Shown: positions 6,673 through 27,351 of the stretch, in pieces
How the letters are laid out: each line of letters begins with the position of its first letter
Position numbering within the stretch: position 1 is the first letter of the stretch
From: a virus
Taxonomy: Duplodnaviria; Caudoviricetes
Reading direction: 5' to 3' (one strand)
DNA: 32,553 bases
IMG/VR virus record: IMGVR_UViG_3300025876_000070
Location: 1-32,553 of that record
The notes under the pieces: model-generated
The model's input: only the letters and a program-made list of their open reading frames with translations
The model's database searches: none
What the model was told of the DNA's origin: nothing
Position numbers and translations under genes: made by a program

Positions 6673-6849
6673 CTAACCTACCCATACCATTGCTGTTGCT
6701 GTAAATGTTATTACAAATGTAGAAAGCACTACAAAATTACATAAATCACGTAATACTTTTTTGCCCTCTGCAAGTGCCTCTGCTTTTTCTTGTTTATCCA
6801 TTAGATCAAAATCTAAATATATAAATTCATATTCTATTTGTTTGTTCAT
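6673..6849 (-). CDS. 58-aa protein with C-terminal TM helix (not in the ORF track)
   Basis: MNKQIEYEFIYLDFDLMDKQEKAEALAEGKKVLRDLCNFVVLSTFVITFTATAMVWVG*; RBS AAAGGATTAAAA-ATG. Confidence 0.7.
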   Translation of the reverse strand: MNKQIEYEFIYLDFDLMDKQEKAEALAEGKKVLRDLCNFVVLSTFVITFTATAMVWVG

Positions 6850-6887
6850 TTTTAATCCTTTATTTTAAAAGCTTGTTTGCCAAGTGT

Positions 6888-6907
6888 TTAGGGGCTTACG
6901 CCACTAA
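6888..6907 (-). terminator. GNRA-tetraloop hairpin after the YodL-like gene
   Basis: TTAGTGGC-GTAA-GCCCCTAA with one mismatch and no clear U-tract; a stability or pause hairpin, or a weak terminator. Confidence 0.35.
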
Positions 6908-6911
6908 TGTT

Positions 6912-7241
6912 TTAGTTAATGTTAATTTTATTAAACCCACAACTAGCTACTGCATAATATTCGCCATTCATTTTAAATATGTCGCTCGTGCTTGAGCTAG
7001 TACCCGGTCTATATCTTTTTATTAACTCTGGGTTTTGCCAATGGTTGGTGACTTCCCAAGCTTTTTCTAAATCATTAACATCAACTTCATAAACAGGCTC
7101 ATAATACGTAAAATCTTCTGCTGTAAAAGTCTTTGGTTTAAAATTAGCTCTATGTCTTACATCTGAATATTTTAAATATAACTCATTGTTACCATTTAAC
7201 TTGTTAAATATTTCTTCTTTGATTTGGTATATTGTAATCAT
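6912..7241 (-). CDS. YodL-like domain protein
   Basis: MITIYQI...YEPVYE...LEKAWEVTN...SSSTSDIF...YYAVASCGF resembles the YodL pattern IYQL...Y..VY...LE.IF..FN...SLSVSDVV...YYVD..GF. Start at 7241 with RBS AAAGGATTAAAA. Confidence 0.6.
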   Translation of the reverse strand: MITIYQIKEEIFNKLNGNNELYLKYSDVRHRANFKPKTFTAEDFTYYEPVYEVDVNDLEKAWEVTNHWQNPELIKRYRPGTSSSTSDIFKMNGEYYAVASCGFNKININ

Positions 7242-7269
7242 TTTTAATCCTTTGTTTTTGTCTATATAC

Positions 7270-7299
7270 ACAATATGGGTATTTTTTTTACATAATCAA
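7270..7299 (-). promoter_or_regulatory. Putative promoter for the YodL-like cassette
   Basis: TTGATT (7299-7294), 18-nt spacer, TATTGT (7275-7270). Confidence 0.4.
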
Positions 7300-7502
7300 G
7301 TGTTAAATGTATTTTTTTTACGTTTAATCTCAAAATCCTTCAGCTTCCGTATCTCTTGCGCCTTTAATTTATTAAATGACGTACCGCACCGGGCTAATGT
7401 TGAGCTAACGCTCTGAGGGGTAGTGTTACAAGCAAACGCTATTTGCTTTAAGCTAAACCAAGGCGTTCTATAAACTTCTTCATGTATTTTGTTAATAAGC
7501 AT
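7296..7502 (-). CDS. Small basic HTH-like protein
   Basis: SLKQIAFACNTTPQSVSSTLAR fits an HTH pattern; TAATG coupling to the MTase stop. Confidence 0.6.
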   Translation of the reverse strand: MLINKIHEEVYRTPWFSLKQIAFACNTTPQSVSSTLARCGTSFNKLKAQEIRKLKDFEIKRKKNTFNT

Positions 7503-8215
7503 TAAAACATATCCTCTTGTTTAGGTATTATTGGTTTGCTTGGCTGTTCTACAAACATATCTGGTTGCTCATAGGCTTTTCTAATACGCTCACACGCTAT
7601 GTCGAAGTAATCGGGGTCAAGCTCTATACCTGTAAACTTTCTGCCTAATTTAACGCAAGCAACACCTGTGGTTCCGCTGCCCATGAAAGGGTCGAGGATT
7701 GTTTCGGCGTTTTCTGGTAAGTGCTTTATACACCACTCCATAACTCCGACAGGTTTTTGTGTAAGGTGAACACGCTTTACACCGCGCTCAACACCCTTTC
7801 TTAAAAACCCTGACCACTGCCAAGTAATCATCCGAACAGCTTTTTTTAAATTAGTCCAAGCAAGCTCACAATCGGCAAAATCAGATTTTCCAGTCTCCTT
7901 ATTCCAAACAAGCCAGCAAGAGGATGGAGGCAAGTCAAAATAATTACCGCCAAAAATAATTTGGTTATTAGAACGATTCACCAACATATTTATTTGCTCA
8001 ACAGAGGCAGGTTCATGGTCAAAATCGCCTCCTTTATAGACTGTGCATTCTGCAAGTTTATGTCGTGATAGGTTCTTTTTTTGGCTCTCTCCAATCCCAT
8101 AAGGCGGGTCAGTAACAACAGCATCAAAATTGCCAAGCAAGGGCATGACCTCAAGGCAATCACCGAGTATTAATCGGCAATCGCCAATAGTCACATCTTT
8201 AATAATAGCCGTCAT
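7502..8215 (-). CDS. Beta-class N6A/N4C DNA methyltransferase 1
   Basis: LILGDC, catalytic TDPPY, HLTQKP and SAM-binding ILDPFMGSGTT...GIELD, with motif IV before motif I. Confidence 0.93.
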   Translation of the reverse strand: MTAIIKDVTIGDCRLILGDCLEVMPLLGNFDAVVTDPPYGIGESQKKNLSRHKLAECTVYKGGDFDHEPASVEQINMLVNRSNNQIIFGGNYFDLPPSSCWLVWNKETGKSDFADCELAWTNLKKAVRMITWQWSGFLRKGVERGVKRVHLTQKPVGVMEWCIKHLPENAETILDPFMGSGTTGVACVKLGRKFTGIELDPDYFDIACERIRKAYEQPDMFVEQPSKPIIPKQEDMF

Positions 8216-8694
8216 TAAATCAACTCCAATACTGACTTAGCTTTTAAATATAAGCTTTTGCGTCTTACATACTCAGGTTTAACTGACTCCATCAGTACGC
8301 CAGCTGATCTAGGCGCAAAGCTTTGACTTGAGTTGCGCCAATTTACGCAAGCTTGGTGTATCAAATCTTCTGGATAGTCTTTCATGTCAGCAATCCACTC
8401 CCGGTCTAATTGCTTTTGTAGCTCTGGCGGCCTAGCAACTTCATAGTATCTGCTTTCAAGTAACTCTATGCAACCTAATATAGTTTTAGCTTTAGCTGGC
8501 TGTAATGTACCTAAGTAATGCTCTTTTACTTTCTCTATGTTTTTCTTTTGCCCAGCTGCAATTTGTTTGTCTTGCGCACAATCAAAATCTCTAGGATAGC
8601 CTTTAAGATTGATACTCTTTAAGCAAGTTTCCCCTGCTAAGACGTCTTTGCTCACCGATTTGCGCATATTTGTTAGTTTTATTATTTCTGACAT
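8215..8694 (-). CDS. Putative helicase loader (lambda P position)
   Basis: Follows the initiator; W-x2-D-x3-YPEDLI-x2-AC-x2-WR-x5-FAP pattern typical of genes downstream of phage initiators. Confidence 0.5.
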   Translation of the reverse strand: MSEIIKLTNMRKSVSKDVLAGETCLKSINLKGYPRDFDCAQDKQIAAGQKKNIEKVKEHYLGTLQPAKAKTILGCIELLESRYYEVARPPELQKQLDREWIADMKDYPEDLIHQACVNWRNSSQSFAPRSAGVLMESVKPEYVRRKSLYLKAKSVLELI

Positions 8695-9358
8695 TTTGTT
8701 TTCCTTTTTTGCTGTCGTTGTATGTGAAATGGTTTTTTAACCAAGTACGCCACTGCCTGTTAAAATCAGTAGACTCAGTTTTGTTGTCTATGTGAAACTC
8801 TACAAACTTTTCTAGCTCTAACTCATAAACATCTTTGCTCATATGATCACGCACCATCTGAGCTGTCTTAGTCGTCGCATTTAATGTTTTTGGCCTCCAT
8901 TCACTGTATAGTATATTATTAATAATTGGTTCTGGTTCTGGTTCTAGGTTCTGGTTCTGGTTGGCACGCCTTATGGCCTTATCGTCTGCAAGCCTGTTGG
9001 CGCTATCTTTTTCTTTATATTTCAATGCTGTAGCTGCTCCCCCTTTTTTAGCTGCTTTAACTTTTATTTTATACTTACTATCACTTTTCTTATATTCTTC
9101 TAATAATCTTTTGTTTGCATATTGCCCTTTTATAACAATAAAAAACTCATCTAAAATTGCCAACAACGCAGCTTTATCTTGCTCTGATCTAATAAGCATC
9201 TTTCTGGCAATCCATTCAATATCTTTTGGAATGGTGCAACCCGGTGTTGTCCAGCAAAGTGATAGCAGTCTGTTGTATGCACCAAACTCTGCTAAAGTTA
9301 GATGCATAGTTTTGTAGCCCATGTCTTTGGGGTAGTAGTTGAAGTATGGTAAGCTCAT
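8603..9358 (-). CDS. Replication initiator, DUF1376/YdaU family
   Basis: MSLPYFNYYPKD...HLTLAEFGAYNRLLSLCW, NKRL, AKKGG, PEPEP linker and C-terminal FVEFH...DFNRQWRTW. Start at 9358 with AGGA SD. Confidence 0.8.
   Translation of the reverse strand: MSLPYFNYYPKDMGYKTMHLTLAEFGAYNRLLSLCWTTPGCTIPKDIEWIARKMLIRSEQDKAALLAILDEFFIVIKGQYANKRLLEEYKKSDSKYKIKVKAAKKGGAATALKYKEKDSANRLADDKAIRRANQNQNLEPEPEPIINNILYSEWRPKTLNATTKTAQMVRDHMSKDVYELELEKFVEFHIDNKTESTDFNRQWRTWLKNHFTYNDSKKGKQNVRNNKTNKYAQIGEQRRLSRGNLLKEYQS
8927..8962. repeat. (TGGTTC)n hexamer tandem repeat, ~6 units
   Basis: TGGTTC x3, TAGGTTC, TGGTTC, TGGTT; encodes NQNQNLEPEPEP. Confidence 0.85.
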
Positions 9359-9382
9359 TTTGTTTTCCTTTTTTACAGTTTT

Positions 9383-9412
9383 ATTGTAATCGCATATAGA
9401 CAATTACGTCAA
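9383..9412 (-). promoter_or_regulatory. Putative promoter of the replication genes
   Basis: TTGACG (9412-9407), 18-nt spacer, TACAAT (9388-9383). Confidence 0.6.
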
Positions 9413-9425
9413 TATCTTTATTAAT
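9397..9425 (+). promoter_or_regulatory. Putative overlapping divergent promoter for the sRNA
   Basis: TAGACA (9397-9402), 16/17-nt spacer, TATTAA/ATTAAT (9419-9425); predicts +1 near 9430-9432, the base of hairpin 1. Confidence 0.4.
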
Positions 9426-9429
9426 ATGT

Positions 9430-9504
9430 TTGTCTGCTTGTTTTCCTCCCCGTAGATGCAGACAACTGGGCAGTAGTTTTTAATCCTTTCTACTGCCCTT
9501 TTTT
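9430..9504 (+). ncRNA. Candidate two-hairpin anti-RBS small RNA
   Basis: Stem 1 TTGTCTGC/GCAGACAA with loop TTGTTTTCCTCCCCGTAGAT; stem 2 GGGCAGTAG/CTACTGCCC with loop TTTTTAATCCTTT; then T6. The loops are complementary to five phage RBSs. Confidence 0.65.
9468..9504 (+). terminator. Intrinsic terminator (3' end of the candidate sRNA)
   Basis: Perfect 9-bp GC-rich stem followed by TTTTTT on the + strand, although both flanking genes are on the - strand. Confidence 0.7.
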
Positions 9505-9506
9505 AT

Positions 9507-9836
9507 TTAATACACTTCCAAAATTGTTATATTATGCACAGCCTTCATTAATTTCTTCACTAGCCTATATTGGGCCTTCCGAGCTGTAATGGGACTCTTA
9601 ACATCTTCCACTATCAAAGTACCTTCTTTGTTCTTGTATTGACTGTCAGCAGTATATCTACATATCTTCTGGTCGTTCACCAGTATCTGATAGACTGGAT
9701 GTATTTCTAACTCTGATATCTCACCATCTTTTAAGCGCTGCTTGTTATGTAAATATCTGGCGTGTTCACGCTTTGAATCAAATGTCATACCATCATCTTT
9801 GACCTTGATGGCGTTGTATTTGTTACGTTTATACAT
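9507..9836 (-). CDS. DUF1064 family PD-(D/E)XK nuclease-like protein
   Basis: NKYNAIK...DGMTFDSKREHARY, YTAD, IVEDVKS. Confidence 0.85.
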   Translation of the reverse strand: MYKRNKYNAIKVKDDGMTFDSKREHARYLHNKQRLKDGEISELEIHPVYQILVNDQKICRYTADSQYKNKEGTLIVEDVKSPITARKAQYRLVKKLMKAVHNITILEVY

Positions 9837-10714: not shown

Positions 10715-10746
10715 TAAGTCATCACAGTTTAAAAATGGAGGAAAAC

Positions 10747-11358
10747 GTGACTATACAACACTTACCAATGCAACATTCTGCAAGCACAGCTAAAATTGCA
10801 CCAGCTCTTGTTAAAGCTATTAATTCTATACAGCCAGCAAGTAAAGATGGCAGCAATCCGCACTTTAAATCTAAATATACAACTATTAGCTCACTAATTG
10901 AAGCTGCTAGGCCACATTTAGCAGAAAACGATATAACAATAATGCAAAATCAAGGTGGTATTACTGAGCGTCGTACAATGGTACTAAGCACAAGAATATT
11001 GCACACATCCGGGGAGTGGTATGAAACATATTTTGAATCAGATGTAAAAAATTCAGATATCCACGTACTTATGAGTACAATGACTTACTGCCGTCGCGGT
11101 GGTTTAGCTGGCGCACTTAATATGTCACAAGAAGATGACGATGGTAATGTTGCATCACAAGCTAAACAAATAAAGTCAATAGACTTAGAGCCATTGCTTA
11201 TAGAAATATCAGAATCTATGCAAGATGACGATTTAAAATCTGTCGCTAAAAAAATACGTAGTCTAAAGTGTAATAATGCAGACTTAGCTACACTTAAAAA
11301 AGCTTGGTCTGAGCAAAAAGCTGCTATTGTAGCCGCAGAAAAAGCGGAGGCACAGTAA
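10747..11358 (+). CDS. ERF family single-strand annealing protein
   Basis: KDGSNPHFKSKY, HTSGEW, STMTYCRR, EDDDGN. GTG start at 10747 after GGAGG. Confidence 0.9.
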   Translation: MTIQHLPMQHSASTAKIAPALVKAINSIQPASKDGSNPHFKSKYTTISSLIEAARPHLAENDITIMQNQGGITERRTMVLSTRILHTSGEWYETYFESDVKNSDIHVLMSTMTYCRRGGLAGALNMSQEDDDGNVASQAKQIKSIDLEPLLIEISESMQDDDLKSVAKKIRSLKCNNADLATLKKAWSEQKAAIVAAEKAEAQ

Positions 11359-12429: not shown

Positions 12430-13116
12430 ATGACAGCTATAATAAAAGATGTAACAATAGGTGGTCAGCGATTAATACTCGGTGACTGCCAACAGGTTAT
12501 GCAAGAGCTTGGTGGCTACGACACTTTAGTTAGTGATCCCCCATACGAAATACAAACAAGCGGCGGTGGTATACATAGCAAGCGTACATTTTTAAAAGAA
12601 GTAGAGAAAGCTAAAATACATAAGGGCTTTGATTACAATATAATTAATTCAGATTTATATGGTAGCGCGATAGTATTTTGTCATAATGACCAATTAGCTA
12701 AATTATTGCCAGACCTTGCAAGCAAATATAAAAGATATGCTATGTGCGCTTGGCAAAAAACAAATCCTATGCCTGTTGCTAACAAACATTATCAGCCAGA
12801 GTTGGAGATATATGTTCATGCTTGGAATAAAGGCTACCACCCACAAGGCGATCTTAGTTATAAGAAAAGAATATTTACACATAGTGTTGGTAAATCTGAT
12901 TATGACCATCCAACTGTAAAACCTTTAGGCTTAATGCAAAAAGTAGTGACTAATGCTACTGGGTCTATATTAGATCCTTTTATGGGTACAGGTACAACGC
13001 TTGTTGCGTGTGAGAAGCTTGGCAGGCGTGGCGTTGGTATAGAAATCAGTGAAAAGTATTATAACATTGCGTGTGAGCGAGTAGATGAAGCTGCTAATCA
13101 GTTAGAGATGTTTTAA
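12430..13116 (+). CDS. Beta-class N6A/N4C DNA methyltransferase 2
   Basis: LILGDC, SDPPY, HPTVKP, ILDPFMGTGTT...GIEIS. Confidence 0.93.
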   Translation: MTAIIKDVTIGGQRLILGDCQQVMQELGGYDTLVSDPPYEIQTSGGGIHSKRTFLKEVEKAKIHKGFDYNIINSDLYGSAIVFCHNDQLAKLLPDLASKYKRYAMCAWQKTNPMPVANKHYQPELEIYVHAWNKGYHPQGDLSYKKRIFTHSVGKSDYDHPTVKPLGLMQKVVTNATGSILDPFMGTGTTLVACEKLGRRGVGIEISEKYYNIACERVDEAANQLEMF

Positions 13117-21379: not shown

Positions 21380-24304
21380 TTATCTTTTAGTACGTATCTG
21401 ACCATCAGACCTACGATAACGTGTGCCAGCTGGCAGACTATCATATTGCTGTTGAGTTGTAATATTTACAATATTAGGTGTTGTTGCACTAACTACACCA
21501 GCACCAGTTAATCCACCAAGTGCTGTTAAAGCGCTCTGTTTTGGTAACGCACGTAGTATCTTTACGCCTTGCGAATTATCTAGCAATCTACCGCTTATTT
21601 TCTTTCTTACGTCTATATCTAAATCTAATAGCATTTGCGCTGCATCGCGTGTAGGCATAGTTAATAATTGCGCGGCAGCAGTTGTTATATCTTCATCAAC
21701 AACATCTCCAGCTTTACCTAGTGTTCTTAAACTTAGATCACCAGCTTTTCTACCTAAAAATGGTATTAAATTAGCTAGGTTTCTTACATCGCCAACAGCT
21801 TCAGTGCCTTTTGCTATAGCTTGCATTGTGTCGCTTTTCGCTGGCTGCTCTGCTAGTTTTATGGCTTCTGTAGCACTTGCTGTAATAGAGTTTGCGCCTA
21901 CATCTGTTGCTTTTGCTGTATCTGCTAGCTCTGCTTGACGCACTAAATCATTTACTAAGGTTTCAGCTTTTTCTTTACCAATAACTGTTTCTAACTTAGA
22001 TTTAAAGCTTGGTGTTCTAAATTGCCCTTTTAATGCGCTATAGCTCTCAGGGTTATCTAATAAAATATCTATTTGATCTTTAATACCTGACAACAGCGCT
22101 TCTTTTTCAGATTTACTATAATTCTCTATATCTCTTGCAAACTGTTTGGGCCTAGTTTTTTTGTTAGTGATATTTTTTAAGCCATAATCCATTGCATTTT
22201 TGTTAGCCTCCTCACCAGCAAATACACTTCTAGCCTGTGCATATTCTGGATTAGCTTTATCTATTTCTTTTAATAGTTTATTTTTAATAATGATTAAATC
22301 ACGCGCTCTTTTTTTTGTATTTTGCTGTATATTCCTACCTATTTCATCATCTAAACTTTTTTTAACTTGATCTAATATTTCTAATTGGTTTTCTGTTGCT
22401 TGCCCCATATAAGCTAAATCTTTTACTGCTTTATCCCTGTAGTCTTTAACTAAAGGTATATTAAGAACCTCTTGCAATTCCTCTGTTGGCTGTATTCCTT
22501 TAGCAAATGCTTTGTCATATAACGGCTTAGATTCCTCATCTATTCTTATATTTATATCATCTAGCGTGTCGATCATATCTTTTGGTCTACCAAGCGCTAC
22601 GTTAAATGCTTCATTTACACGTTGACTTTGTTCAGATTGTTGCGCTCTTGCAGCTTTTTGCATTATATTTTGAGATGGCCCAGCCCTACGGCCTAAGCCT
22701 ACGCCAGCTATACTATATCCCGGCAAATTAGGGTCTTGCAATAACATATCAGGTCTAACTGTTTCATCATCTGCGGCACGTAACAATGATGATCTAAACT
22801 CTTTTGGGTCTTTTATGCCAGATACAGACCTCATGTAGTCATATATGTTTTGTTCTTTGCCTTGTGGTATTGTATCAATGCGTGTCTGTGTTTTCTTTGA
22901 CCTAATGTTTTTTGGGTCAAATATAACTACTTCATCGCCACCAGCAGCAATGATACCATCATATCCAGCTTTTTTTGCTTTTTCAGTAAGCGCTGCAGGT
23001 GTATATTCTCTATTGGCTCCCCTTCCTCTTCTTATGTAATCACTAAGTGTATAATCAATATCTTCTATTTTGCCAAAAAACTTATCATAGCCAGATTTGT
23101 TTGAGTCTAGCAAACCTGTATCTTGATTGACCTTTCTTTTTACTTCCCTTTTTAATGCGTCTACAGCTTCTTCTTTTGTGTCATAAAACTGTTTTTGATA
23201 ACCACCAAAATTTGCATATATTTCTGAAAATTGTTTTTTCTCTACACCTTTACTGTCAGTATAAGTGAATGGTTTTAATACTGGGTCAATTATATATGCG
23301 TGTACACCATCTGTTCCATCACTGTTTGTTGCTGGCCCAATTTTTACATTTTTATCTACATAATCATCTATTTTATCTAATGTTGCTATAGTCTTTTTTG
23401 TTCTATCATCTAGCATATCTATTTTATCAAGCTCACTTGTCCAGAATCTAAAATCTGGACTGTCAATACCTAAATAACTGGCTTTTCCTTTGCCTGACAA
23501 ATCTAACATTTTACCTTTAGTATAAAACTCACCTACATTTGGCCCATAATAACCTGCCTCACCATAATTTGGTGTTAAATAATGGCCTCTACCATAAAAA
23601 CCATCATCTCTTTTGCCTATGTATTTATCATCAAACTCATCAAACTTTGCCTGTGAGCCATGATATAAAGGTTTATCAACATTAAAATCATCAGCTACTT
23701 GCTCTGCAATGTCATCAGATATACTTTTGGTAGGCACATCAGGAGTATCAATATTAAATGCTCTGCGTGTGCCTCTGTATACTTGTCCCGGTGCTTTTAT
23801 AATACCTTTAACAGTAGCTACACCTGTTTTTGCTAATGGCCCTATAGCTGGCGCTAATCCTGCAAGTTCAGCAGCGCCTCCTGCTGCCTCTAATCCTGTT
23901 AATGCAGCCTGTTTGCCTAACCTACCAGCTATTGCTGGCCTGCCTGTAGCCAACGCAGCTAACGCACCACCACCTAATGCGCCAGACTTCTGTATATTAC
24001 TTGGCATATCATATACAGCCATTGCTGGGTCTGTTACTAATGTTTTTACAGGTTCTTCTATAACGTCAGCAGCGTAATCTGGTAGAGCACCCGCTCCATA
24101 TGCAACCGCTGGATTTATTAATCCACTGCCAGCCCTAACAGCAGTACCAGCTGCTCTTAAACCACTTAAAAAACCATCAAGAGGCTTTGCTTGCATTGGT
24201 GCACTACCGCTTTTAGTTTTAATTTGACCATCAGATCTGCGATATTTAGTTCCGGGTAGCAAAGCATCATATTGTTCTTGGCTAGTAATATTTGGTACTG
24301 ACAT
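21380..24304 (-). CDS. Large ejection (internal virion) protein with ART-PolyVal-like domain
   Basis: Third large gene after the nozzle and GNAT. Motifs LYHGS..KFDEFD, FYGRGHYLT...EAGYYG, AGYDGII, DEVVIFDPKNIRS; helical C-terminal half. Confidence 0.75.
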   Translation of the reverse strand: MSVPNITSQEQYDALLPGTKYRRSDGQIKTKSGSAPMQAKPLDGFLSGLRAAGTAVRAGSGLINPAVAYGAGALPDYAADVIEEPVKTLVTDPAMAVYDMPSNIQKSGALGGGALAALATGRPAIAGRLGKQAALTGLEAAGGAAELAGLAPAIGPLAKTGVATVKGIIKAPGQVYRGTRRAFNIDTPDVPTKSISDDIAEQVADDFNVDKPLYHGSQAKFDEFDDKYIGKRDDGFYGRGHYLTPNYGEAGYYGPNVGEFYTKGKMLDLSGKGKASYLGIDSPDFRFWTSELDKIDMLDDRTKKTIATLDKIDDYVDKNVKIGPATNSDGTDGVHAYIIDPVLKPFTYTDSKGVEKKQFSEIYANFGGYQKQFYDTKEEAVDALKREVKRKVNQDTGLLDSNKSGYDKFFGKIEDIDYTLSDYIRRGRGANREYTPAALTEKAKKAGYDGIIAAGGDEVVIFDPKNIRSKKTQTRIDTIPQGKEQNIYDYMRSVSGIKDPKEFRSSLLRAADDETVRPDMLLQDPNLPGYSIAGVGLGRRAGPSQNIMQKAARAQQSEQSQRVNEAFNVALGRPKDMIDTLDDINIRIDEESKPLYDKAFAKGIQPTEELQEVLNIPLVKDYRDKAVKDLAYMGQATENQLEILDQVKKSLDDEIGRNIQQNTKKRARDLIIIKNKLLKEIDKANPEYAQARSVFAGEEANKNAMDYGLKNITNKKTRPKQFARDIENYSKSEKEALLSGIKDQIDILLDNPESYSALKGQFRTPSFKSKLETVIGKEKAETLVNDLVRQAELADTAKATDVGANSITASATEAIKLAEQPAKSDTMQAIAKGTEAVGDVRNLANLIPFLGRKAGDLSLRTLGKAGDVVDEDITTAAAQLLTMPTRDAAQMLLDLDIDVRKKISGRLLDNSQGVKILRALPKQSALTALGGLTGAGVVSATTPNIVNITTQQQYDSLPAGTRYRRSDGQIRTKR

Positions 24305-27157: not shown

Positions 27158-27351
27158 GTTAATACTCCAGAGTTATCAATACTTGCACTATAGCGCGTTC
27201 CGTTCGGGCTTGTAAGTATTAATCTATTACTTGCGTTTATATTTATATCTTCATTGATCTTACGTGTTTGCGTCATCTCATATGTAATATTACGACGTGT
27301 TTCTGTTTCATTGATCAGATCATATGTTGGCATTGCGTCAGGCAGTCTCAT
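27142..27351 (-). CDS. Small tail-associated protein
   Basis: MRLPDA start (ATGA overlap); RLILTSPNGTRY...IDNSGVL beta motif. Confidence 0.7.
   Translation of the reverse strand: MRLPDAMPTYDLINETETRRNITYEMTQTRKINEDININASNRLILTSPNGTRYSASIDNSGVLTWTAL

Follow-up and report, generated by a model that had tools for sequence, protein, structure and literature searches.

Of the known phage antisense RNAs directed at phage genes, most match a single gene each, and the shut-off of early mRNAs as a group is known from proteins, e.g., T4 RegB. AbcR is an alphaproteobacterial sRNA that uses a loop-displayed anti-Shine-Dalgarno (anti-SD) motif, and the C4 RNA of P1 and P7, which like the P4 CI RNA takes the place of a protein repressor, is a small structured phage RNA that pairs through short exposed sequences with more than one phage site. 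In the parts of the published accounts drawn on here, the cuckoo/RSs0680 (CcsR) sRNAs of alphaproteobacteria carry CCUCCUCCC in every hairpin loop and are presumed to occlude ribosome binding sites (RBSs) (PMC4615179), P22 sar and lambda OOP and aQ block translation initiation of phage genes by base pairing (PMC12197685), the P4 CI RNA is processed from the transcript that it controls and acts in immunity through termination at seqA/seqC (PMC4825925), and T4 RegB and RegA bring about coordinated early-mRNA shut-off via a shared start-region motif (PMC3014915). Further excerpts describe the start-associated sequences (SAS) of Cluster K mycobacteriophages as an extended RBS that is private to these phages and marks some of their genes, of function unknown in 2011, with a single reversed copy in K1 phages that is not tied to a gene start (PMC3203893), and mention many uncharacterised phage ncRNAs (PMC10914365) and 38 undescribed sRNAs (Table S1 of PMC12197685).

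The element considered here lies between two genes of the window, i.e., the whole stretch of 32,553 nucleotides that was analysed, and consists of two hairpins followed by a U tract on the plus strand (Table 1). As far as the cited descriptions extend, it resembles the cuckoo/RSs0680 RNAs in its adjacent hairpins (2-4), variable stems and loop-displayed anti-SD sequence. Unlike the cuckoo RNAs, it does not have CCUCCUCCC in every loop (loop 1 has CCUCCCC, loop 2 none), its two loops differ, its matches span the SD-to-start spacer and its predicted targets are the phage's own genes. Like sar, OOP and aQ, it would be a small phage RNA predicted to block the translation start of phage genes, but in place of one gene each it has several predicted targets, up to 2.6 kb away and on both strands; the intergenic position of the element and its matches of 10-13 nt at distant sites also set it apart from cis-antisense RNAs. 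The likeness to P4 CI RNA is that of a small structured phage RNA whose short exposed sequences pair with more than one phage site. The element differs from this RNA, and from immunity RNAs of the P4 CI/P1 C4 type, in that its loops are antisense opposite the flanking operon, its sites are SD-to-start regions and no integrase family was found among the 45 proteins of the window. The predicted reader of its tag is an RNA, unlike the T4 proteins RegB and RegA. With SAS, again as partly described, the element shares a private extended RBS on a gene subset and a reversed copy in a hairpin loop, whereas the SAS sequence and host are unrelated and the hairpin is a single long one, on the same strand as the genes, with no U tract seen.

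The novelty of the element relative to Rfam was borne out, in that no family reached its gathering threshold in the window. The best of seven sub-threshold matches was sbrA (22.3 vs 45), the sar model scored 15.2 bits against a cut-off of 43, and all seven were treated as chance matches. The literature surveyed, mostly open-access main texts, contained no phage RNA said to recognise an RBS tag common to the phage's own early genes. The element is likely to be of the trans-acting anti-SD sRNA type.

Setting, structure and conservation of the element

The window is a circularly complete genome of 32.5 kb, from a marine phage, in which the scaffold gene wraps round the ends. Its genes include those for an SU10-type portal and capsid, a terminase, a DUF1376 initiator, a DUF1064 nuclease, an HNH protein and a small DNA-binding protein, and the divergent arm had the order ERF-exonuclease-SSB-NinB. 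An alphaproteobacterial host is suggested for this phage because its closest cultured relatives are podoviruses of Rhizobium, Sulfitobacter and Paracoccus (37-57% protein identity); a host search of genome contigs with the element pattern and the initiator alignment gave no matches. Pfam comparison of the 45 window proteins, many of which matched no family, revealed neither an integrase or CI-type family nor an RNA-binding or RNase family. Amid the virion genes there is a 974-aa protein (21380-24304) with an ART-PolyVal (ADP-ribosyltransferase) Pfam match, in a slot that holds different proteins in sister genomes, and each early arm includes an N6/N4 DNA methyltransferase gene (7502-8215 and 12430-13116) that is missing from several close relatives.

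The two stems and six-T tract that the first-pass annotation had placed on the plus strand were confirmed in position and in fold (-26.1 kcal/mol, z -6.13, with none of 200 shuffles folding as well). Stem 1, described there as perfect, is indeed paired throughout in the window, but its outer 2 bp are not conserved in relatives. The minus strand of the window element folded nearly as well (-25.4 kcal/mol, z -5.10). A strict scan for perfect hairpins with anti-SD loops returned three matches in the window, two of them from this element, which is the only perfect hairpin pair of this kind there. Loop 2 is the complement of AAAGGAUUAAAAA, and the U tract was kept as 6-8 T in 21 of 21 distinct variants.

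A candidate promoter for the RNA (Table 1) was matched in the sister clade by a similar TTGCAA-19-TATTAT arrangement. This candidate was absent from the sites returned by a consensus scan of the window, which found 42 sites vs 36 expected, a single site being weak alone. Contigs of four RNA runs from one study, which do not show strand or ends, had flat depth over the element; one such contig ended at 9504 and others ran through. Among six RNA runs surveyed, none contained half of the sampled words.

Table 1. Features of the two-hairpin element, its surroundings and the start regions matched by its loops (window positions)
Feature	Position	Strand	Details
Stem 1	9430-9437/9458-9465	+	Loop 1 is 9438-9457 (20 nt)
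Hairpin 1	9430..9465	+	Conserved core stem 9432-9437/9458-9463; anti-RBS sequence is the 5' loop part, 9438-9451
Hairpin 2	9468..9498	+	9-bp stem 9468-9476/9490-9498; 13-nt loop 9477-9489
U tract (T6)	9499..9504	+	Likely intrinsic terminator, plus strand only
Candidate promoter for the RNA	9397..9427	+	TAGACA 9397-9402 with a -10-like hexamer 16 nt (TATTAA) or 19 nt (TAATAT) away
Divergent promoter-like site for initiator	9383..9412	-	TTGACG-18-TACAAT, 10/12 consensus; overlaps candidate plus-strand promoter
DUF1064 nuclease gene	9507..9836	-	3' end adjoins U tract
RBS of 109-aa YodL-like gene (6912-7241)	7241..7253	-	Loop 2 complement 13/13; net about -11.8 kcal/mol
RBS of 58-aa gene (6673-6849)	6849..6861	-	Duplicate of the 7241 site at cassette junction
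RBS of DUF1376 replication initiator (8603-9358)	9360..9369	-	Loop 1 complement 10/10
RBS of 159-aa gene (possible helicase loader), after initiator	8696..8705	-	Loop 1; inside initiator frame
RBS of ERF (GTG at 10747)	10737..10746	+	Loop 1 complement 10/10; first gene of rightward recombination arm

Pattern and protein searches yielded 21 distinct variants of the element in two clades, namely clade A, to which the window belongs, and a sister clade B with a terminase that is 85% identical. In clade B, the stem of hairpin 1 differs from that of clade A, stem 2 has exchanged one A-U pair for G-C and one G-C pair for G·U, loop 2 has 15 nt and the same UAAUCCUUU core, and the replication gene beside the element is that of a DnaB-like helicase, replacing the initiator. 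Stem covariation was thus seen as both compensatory and G·U changes, but it counts as a single event because there are only two lineages. Folds of clade B variants ranged from -22.2 to -23.0 kcal/mol on the plus strand vs -17.3 to -19.0 kcal/mol on the minus strand, the plus strand being better by 3.5-5.7 kcal/mol in four of four variants, because G·U pairs on the plus strand become A·C on the minus strand, where the mismatch opens stem 2. Clade A variants folded about evenly on both strands, and two of nine favoured the minus strand by less than 1 kcal.

Constraint on the element was evident from counts of variable columns, which for stem 2 and loop 2 were 0/31 among 12 clade A haplotypes and 0/33 among 20 of clade B, as compared with 40/218 (A) and 54/240 (B) in the adjacent replication genes. 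The promoter gap was likewise conserved (5/60 in A, 4/47 in B). Within hairpin 1 of the 12 clade A haplotypes, the stem core and 5' loop had no variable column among 18 and the 3' loop had six among eight. The position of the element did not depend on adjacency to DUF1064, as a 187-aa gene intervenes in three relatives (L312, L315 and L316) in which the element stays put. Comparable hairpin pairs were not found in the 190 nt after the gene at 64 distant DUF1064 loci, and no clear equivalent was seen in five podoviruses from culture whose capsid or terminase proteins are 35-54% identical. A conserved structure, a likely terminator and an exposed conserved seed, which are features expected of trans-acting sRNAs in general, are all present in the element, which is probably a plus-strand regulatory RNA.

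Loop complementarity to start regions and the RBS tag

The five exact complementarities between loops and RBSs that the first-pass annotation had listed are all present, and all five fall on SD-to-start regions. The 13-mer of loop 2 occurs elsewhere in the window only at 6849 and 7241 and the 10-mers of loop 1 only at 8696, at 9360 and, as the complement, at 10737, while loop matches to the remaining called starts are 7 nt or shorter. Net pairing at the five sites after opening costs was -10.7 to -11.8 kcal/mol. The matches are real, but the number of independent sites is at most four, because the 7241 and 6849 sites have 15 nt in common and the gene between them is lost in relatives and in RNA contigs. 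Thus, relatives L086 and L103 are without the YodL-like gene, so that their 58-aa gene follows immediately on the first site, and contigs in two of four RNA runs join 6851 to 7244. In the window, the two loop-2 sites amount to a single cassette junction that has been duplicated. As a cassette between identical RBSs (6849-7253), the YodL-like gene is deleted or replaced in relatives, and a direct repeat, GTATTTTTTT(T)AC, present twice at 7268-7325 upstream of the cassette RBS, is a possible promoter or operator element. The label YodL-like is a fair lead (atlas 0.94) and that of helicase loader for the 159-aa protein a weak lead only (atlas 0.87-0.88).

Among 1,076 background start regions from 72 unrelated low-GC loci, clade C loci still included, matches of at least 10 nt were noted three times for loop 2 and never for loop 1, and the 13-nt match of loop 2 did not occur. 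In shuffles that held the SD core fixed and rearranged the other loop letters (3,000 shuffles, 43 window starts), three matches of loop 1 were never obtained (0/3,000) whereas 2.5% of shuffles reproduced the window result for loop 2 (p about 0.025). Evidence from the window alone is thus suggestive rather than decisive, because the loop-2 sites represent one duplicated junction and because of this rate of reproduction by shuffles.

Results from related genomes bear more on loop 2, which mirrors a private RBS tag, AAGGAUUA. The sequence AAGGATTA was found in 17 of 54 non-late gene families of clade B vs 0 of 11 late families, in 3 of 20 non-late and 0 of 10 late families of clade A, in 0 of 33 families of clade C (see below) and in 4 of 508 unrelated start regions, a background that excluded clade C loci. 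The contrast between early and late families is modest (Fisher p 0.034 for B and 0.2 for A), and these p-values are overstated since the families are not independent, RBSs having spread by recombination; with gene starts taken from a simple caller and "late" defined by homology to window genes, family counts are approximate. Likewise, AAGGA was followed by TTA in 17 of 43 clade B families and 3 of 14 clade A families as opposed to 4 of 178 background sites, which still included clade C loci. When two complete clade B genomes were compared with loop 2, matches of at least 9 nt were noted for 5 of 57 called starts in one and for 8 of 58 in the other; these were starts of the helicase and of small accessory genes and in no case of a virion gene. 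The same genomes contain 8 and 12 copies of AAGGATTA; RBSs account for 5 and 8 of these, respectively, and the loop for one in each genome. The seed of loop 2 is thus complementary to start regions beyond chance, as for trans-acting sRNAs in general, and it is this loop that carries the case for an anti-RBS RNA.

Co-evolution of loops and RBSs was seen as one partial co-change, in that the clade B loop has an additional C, to which AAGGATTAG, present in four clade B families but in none of clade A or the background, corresponds. Perfect matches to loop 2 were noted for only three of nine distinct cassette start regions in clade A. Most tagged sites of clade B are without the extra base that would answer the loop C, and the clade A loop fits clade B RBSs better (18/54) than does clade B's own loop (13/54), so that the comparison of sequences points only weakly to co-evolution.

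Loop 1 was the weaker half of the element. Only 2 of 20 non-late clade A families were in the 5% tail (p 0.3), pairing energies for the initiator and loader were ordinary (0.15-0.32 of SD-bearing background starts as good), and the strongest pairing on the side of loop 1 was with a late gene at 27351 (-12.6). A matching set of RBSs was not found for loop 1 of clade B (1/54 families), which varies without a matching RBS change, and ERF of clade B keeps AGGAAAAC despite this variation. Points in favour of loop 1 are that the initiator RBS position facing a loop G is always C or U (six of the 12 haplotypes each, giving G-C or G·U) and that 19 nt of the initiator RBS recur at the loader RBS although this lies within the initiator coding frame. 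Loop 1 may be a more generic C-rich anti-SD sequence that in clade A fits the initiator, loader and ERF starts.

Proposed action of the element and rival explanations

The reading that we consider moderately probable is that the element encodes a plus-strand, trans-acting anti-RBS sRNA of about 75 nt that damps replication and accessory genes in the lytic cycle. The observations behind it are the structure, strand bias and constraint of the element, its complementarity to start regions and the confinement of the tag to non-structural genes. The plus-strand RNA would be transcribed from a promoter that overlaps the divergent one of the initiator, and its transcription would be terminated by hairpin 2 together with the U tract. 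Loop 2, with UAAUCCUUU as its seed, would pair over the SD and spacer at the starts of accessory cassette genes and, in clade B, also at that of the DnaB-like gene, while loop 1 would pair with the initiator, loader and ERF starts in clade A. Build-up of this RNA during infection would then lower the synthesis of early and replication proteins, in the manner of a timer, and newly arriving cassette genes would be placed under control through recombination at the shared RBS. A timer in lytic growth appears more likely than an immunity switch because no integrase or CI is in view; likewise, no lysogenic state is in view since the genome is complete and lacks a Pfam match of either type. If the reading is true, a 75-nt RNA that reads a tag would provide compact, protein-free timing of early genes, and newly acquired cassette genes would be controlled automatically via their tagged RBS.

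Parts of the multi-target translational switch envisaged in the first-pass annotation survive in this reading, namely the structured plus-strand element and a loop 2 that mirrors an RBS tag, but loop 1 is weak. The proposed division between a loop 1 for replication and a loop 2 for host takeover is not supported, since the DnaB-like helicase of clade B carries the loop-2 tag and loop 1 of that clade has no matching RBS set; an action of the small genes on the host is likewise unsupported. Substitution for a missing CI also finds no support in a circularly complete genome with 0 of 45 proteins matching integrase or CI-type families in Pfam.

An explanation that we regard as unlikely is that the element is a local plus-strand terminator or antisense RNA that stops read-through from the divergent promoter into the DUF1064-HNH-cro operon, with the tag a product of recombination and selection for a strong SD and the loop match a relic or aimed at another target, e.g., host mRNAs. 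The U tract and strand asymmetry would fit a terminator equally well, and the location of the RBS at a recombination junction, the weak loop-1 statistics and the occurrence of SAS tags without a reversed copy in those portions of Pixie and TM4 that were scanned (see below) agree with it. A terminator does not, however, need an invariant loop of 13-15 nt or a second hairpin with a fixed anti-SD half, and cassette recombination does not explain the tag on the DnaB-like gene or the loop-1 site inside the initiator frame.

Still less probable is a role for the minus-strand copy, within the cro-DUF1064-initiator transcript, as a decoy or binding site for a RegA/RegB-like or CsrA-like protein that recognises the tag or as a ribosome standby site for the replication gene downstream. 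The flanking genes are encoded on the minus strand, the two strands of the window element fold about equally, 2 of 9 clade A variants favour the minus strand, and T4 RegB and RegA, in the section of the account cited, act on SD or AU-rich starts of early mRNAs (PMC3014915). The decoy, which the first-pass annotation had offered as its alternative, is weakened by the clade B substitutions, which form G·U on the plus strand and break pairs as A·C on the minus strand, and by a U tract on the plus strand only; moreover, none of the 45 window proteins, many of them without any family, matched an RNA-binding or RNase family. A signal at the level of DNA, such as origin-associated or operator inverted repeats with a chance AT-rich likeness to RBSs, would account for an element that adjoins a replication gene in both clades though the gene differs, but changes of the G·U type fit RNA rather than DNA palindromes and the enrichment of the tag is far over background, which makes this explanation very improbable. 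The anti-RBS sRNA thus remains the preferred reading.

Start-associated sequences and hairpins in other phages

In Mycobacterium phage Anaya, the reversed SAS copy forms the loop of a long coding-strand hairpin at 59,844-59,909 (L390:31845-31910). The fold of this anti-SAS hairpin had a z of -2.78 (2 of 200 shuffles as good), and the stretch that contains it has relatives in 138 phage records. The anti-SAS loop was kept and the outer stems altered in 6 of 10 stretches examined (L390, L392, L393, L395, L398 and L399). Such a hairpin was not found in the stretches of Amohnition and TClif or in the scanned halves of Pixie and TM4, and Pixie carries many SAS in its scanned half without it. The K1 hairpin, as a predicted structure, supports the general idea of an RBS tag and its reader in K1 phages, whereas the scanned halves of Pixie and TM4 show that a tag can exist without the hairpin. 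Tentatively, and with somewhat less than even confidence, we suggest that many unrelated phages may tag early RBSs with a private extension and read them with one small hairpin RNA, which would amount to an RNA address code for shutting off a whole, freely exchangeable gene set without a protein repressor, the window and K1 phages being cases of this. If true, this would give SAS a testable function, and K1 phages, with M. smegmatis, provide a cultured test system for a tag-reading RNA.

An unrelated two-hairpin element with a U tract was noted in a third group, clade C (L073:1715-1810, minus strand; also L072, L075, L076 and L079), with an initiator about 53% identical. Loop 1 of this element fits the RBS of its own initiator at 13 of 14 positions, and 3 of 33 clade C families were in the pairing tail (p 0.2). 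As a case of co-evolution it was rejected, given that it is not homologous and that only these 3 of 33 families are in the tail. The terminator loop of clade C is the complement of the core of a leader motif, near-palindromic GGCAATTAAGCC, which in clades B and C (e.g., L183:4300-6700, L079:11390-12520) precedes many early cassette genes by about 25 nt and is absent from the window. This motif is possibly a phage promoter or operator.

Hairpins were also seen in other phages. One unrelated phage (L023:4967-5040) has an array of small genes with AAAAGGGG-type RBSs and, on the same strand as these genes, a double hairpin with CCCCUUUU-type loops and a T tract; as a specific anti-RBS case it was rejected, since its own loop fits 12 of 19 starts and an unrelated C-rich loop fits 10 of 19. 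Similarly rejected was L376, which alone among 59 pattern matches combined the loop-2 core with a strong hairpin in an unrelated sequence, and for which only two starts matched, at 8-9 nt. In another unrelated locus (L062:5000-5076, minus strand; also L033 and L048), the same stem-2 arms occur just after the SSB stop with two pyrimidine-rich loops, the second of which has 11-nt matches to two start regions. In Sulfitobacter phage pCB2047-A, a cultured roseophage candidate, three minus-strand hairpins with C-rich, anti-SD-like loops lie between two DNA-binding genes (L325:18136-18271).
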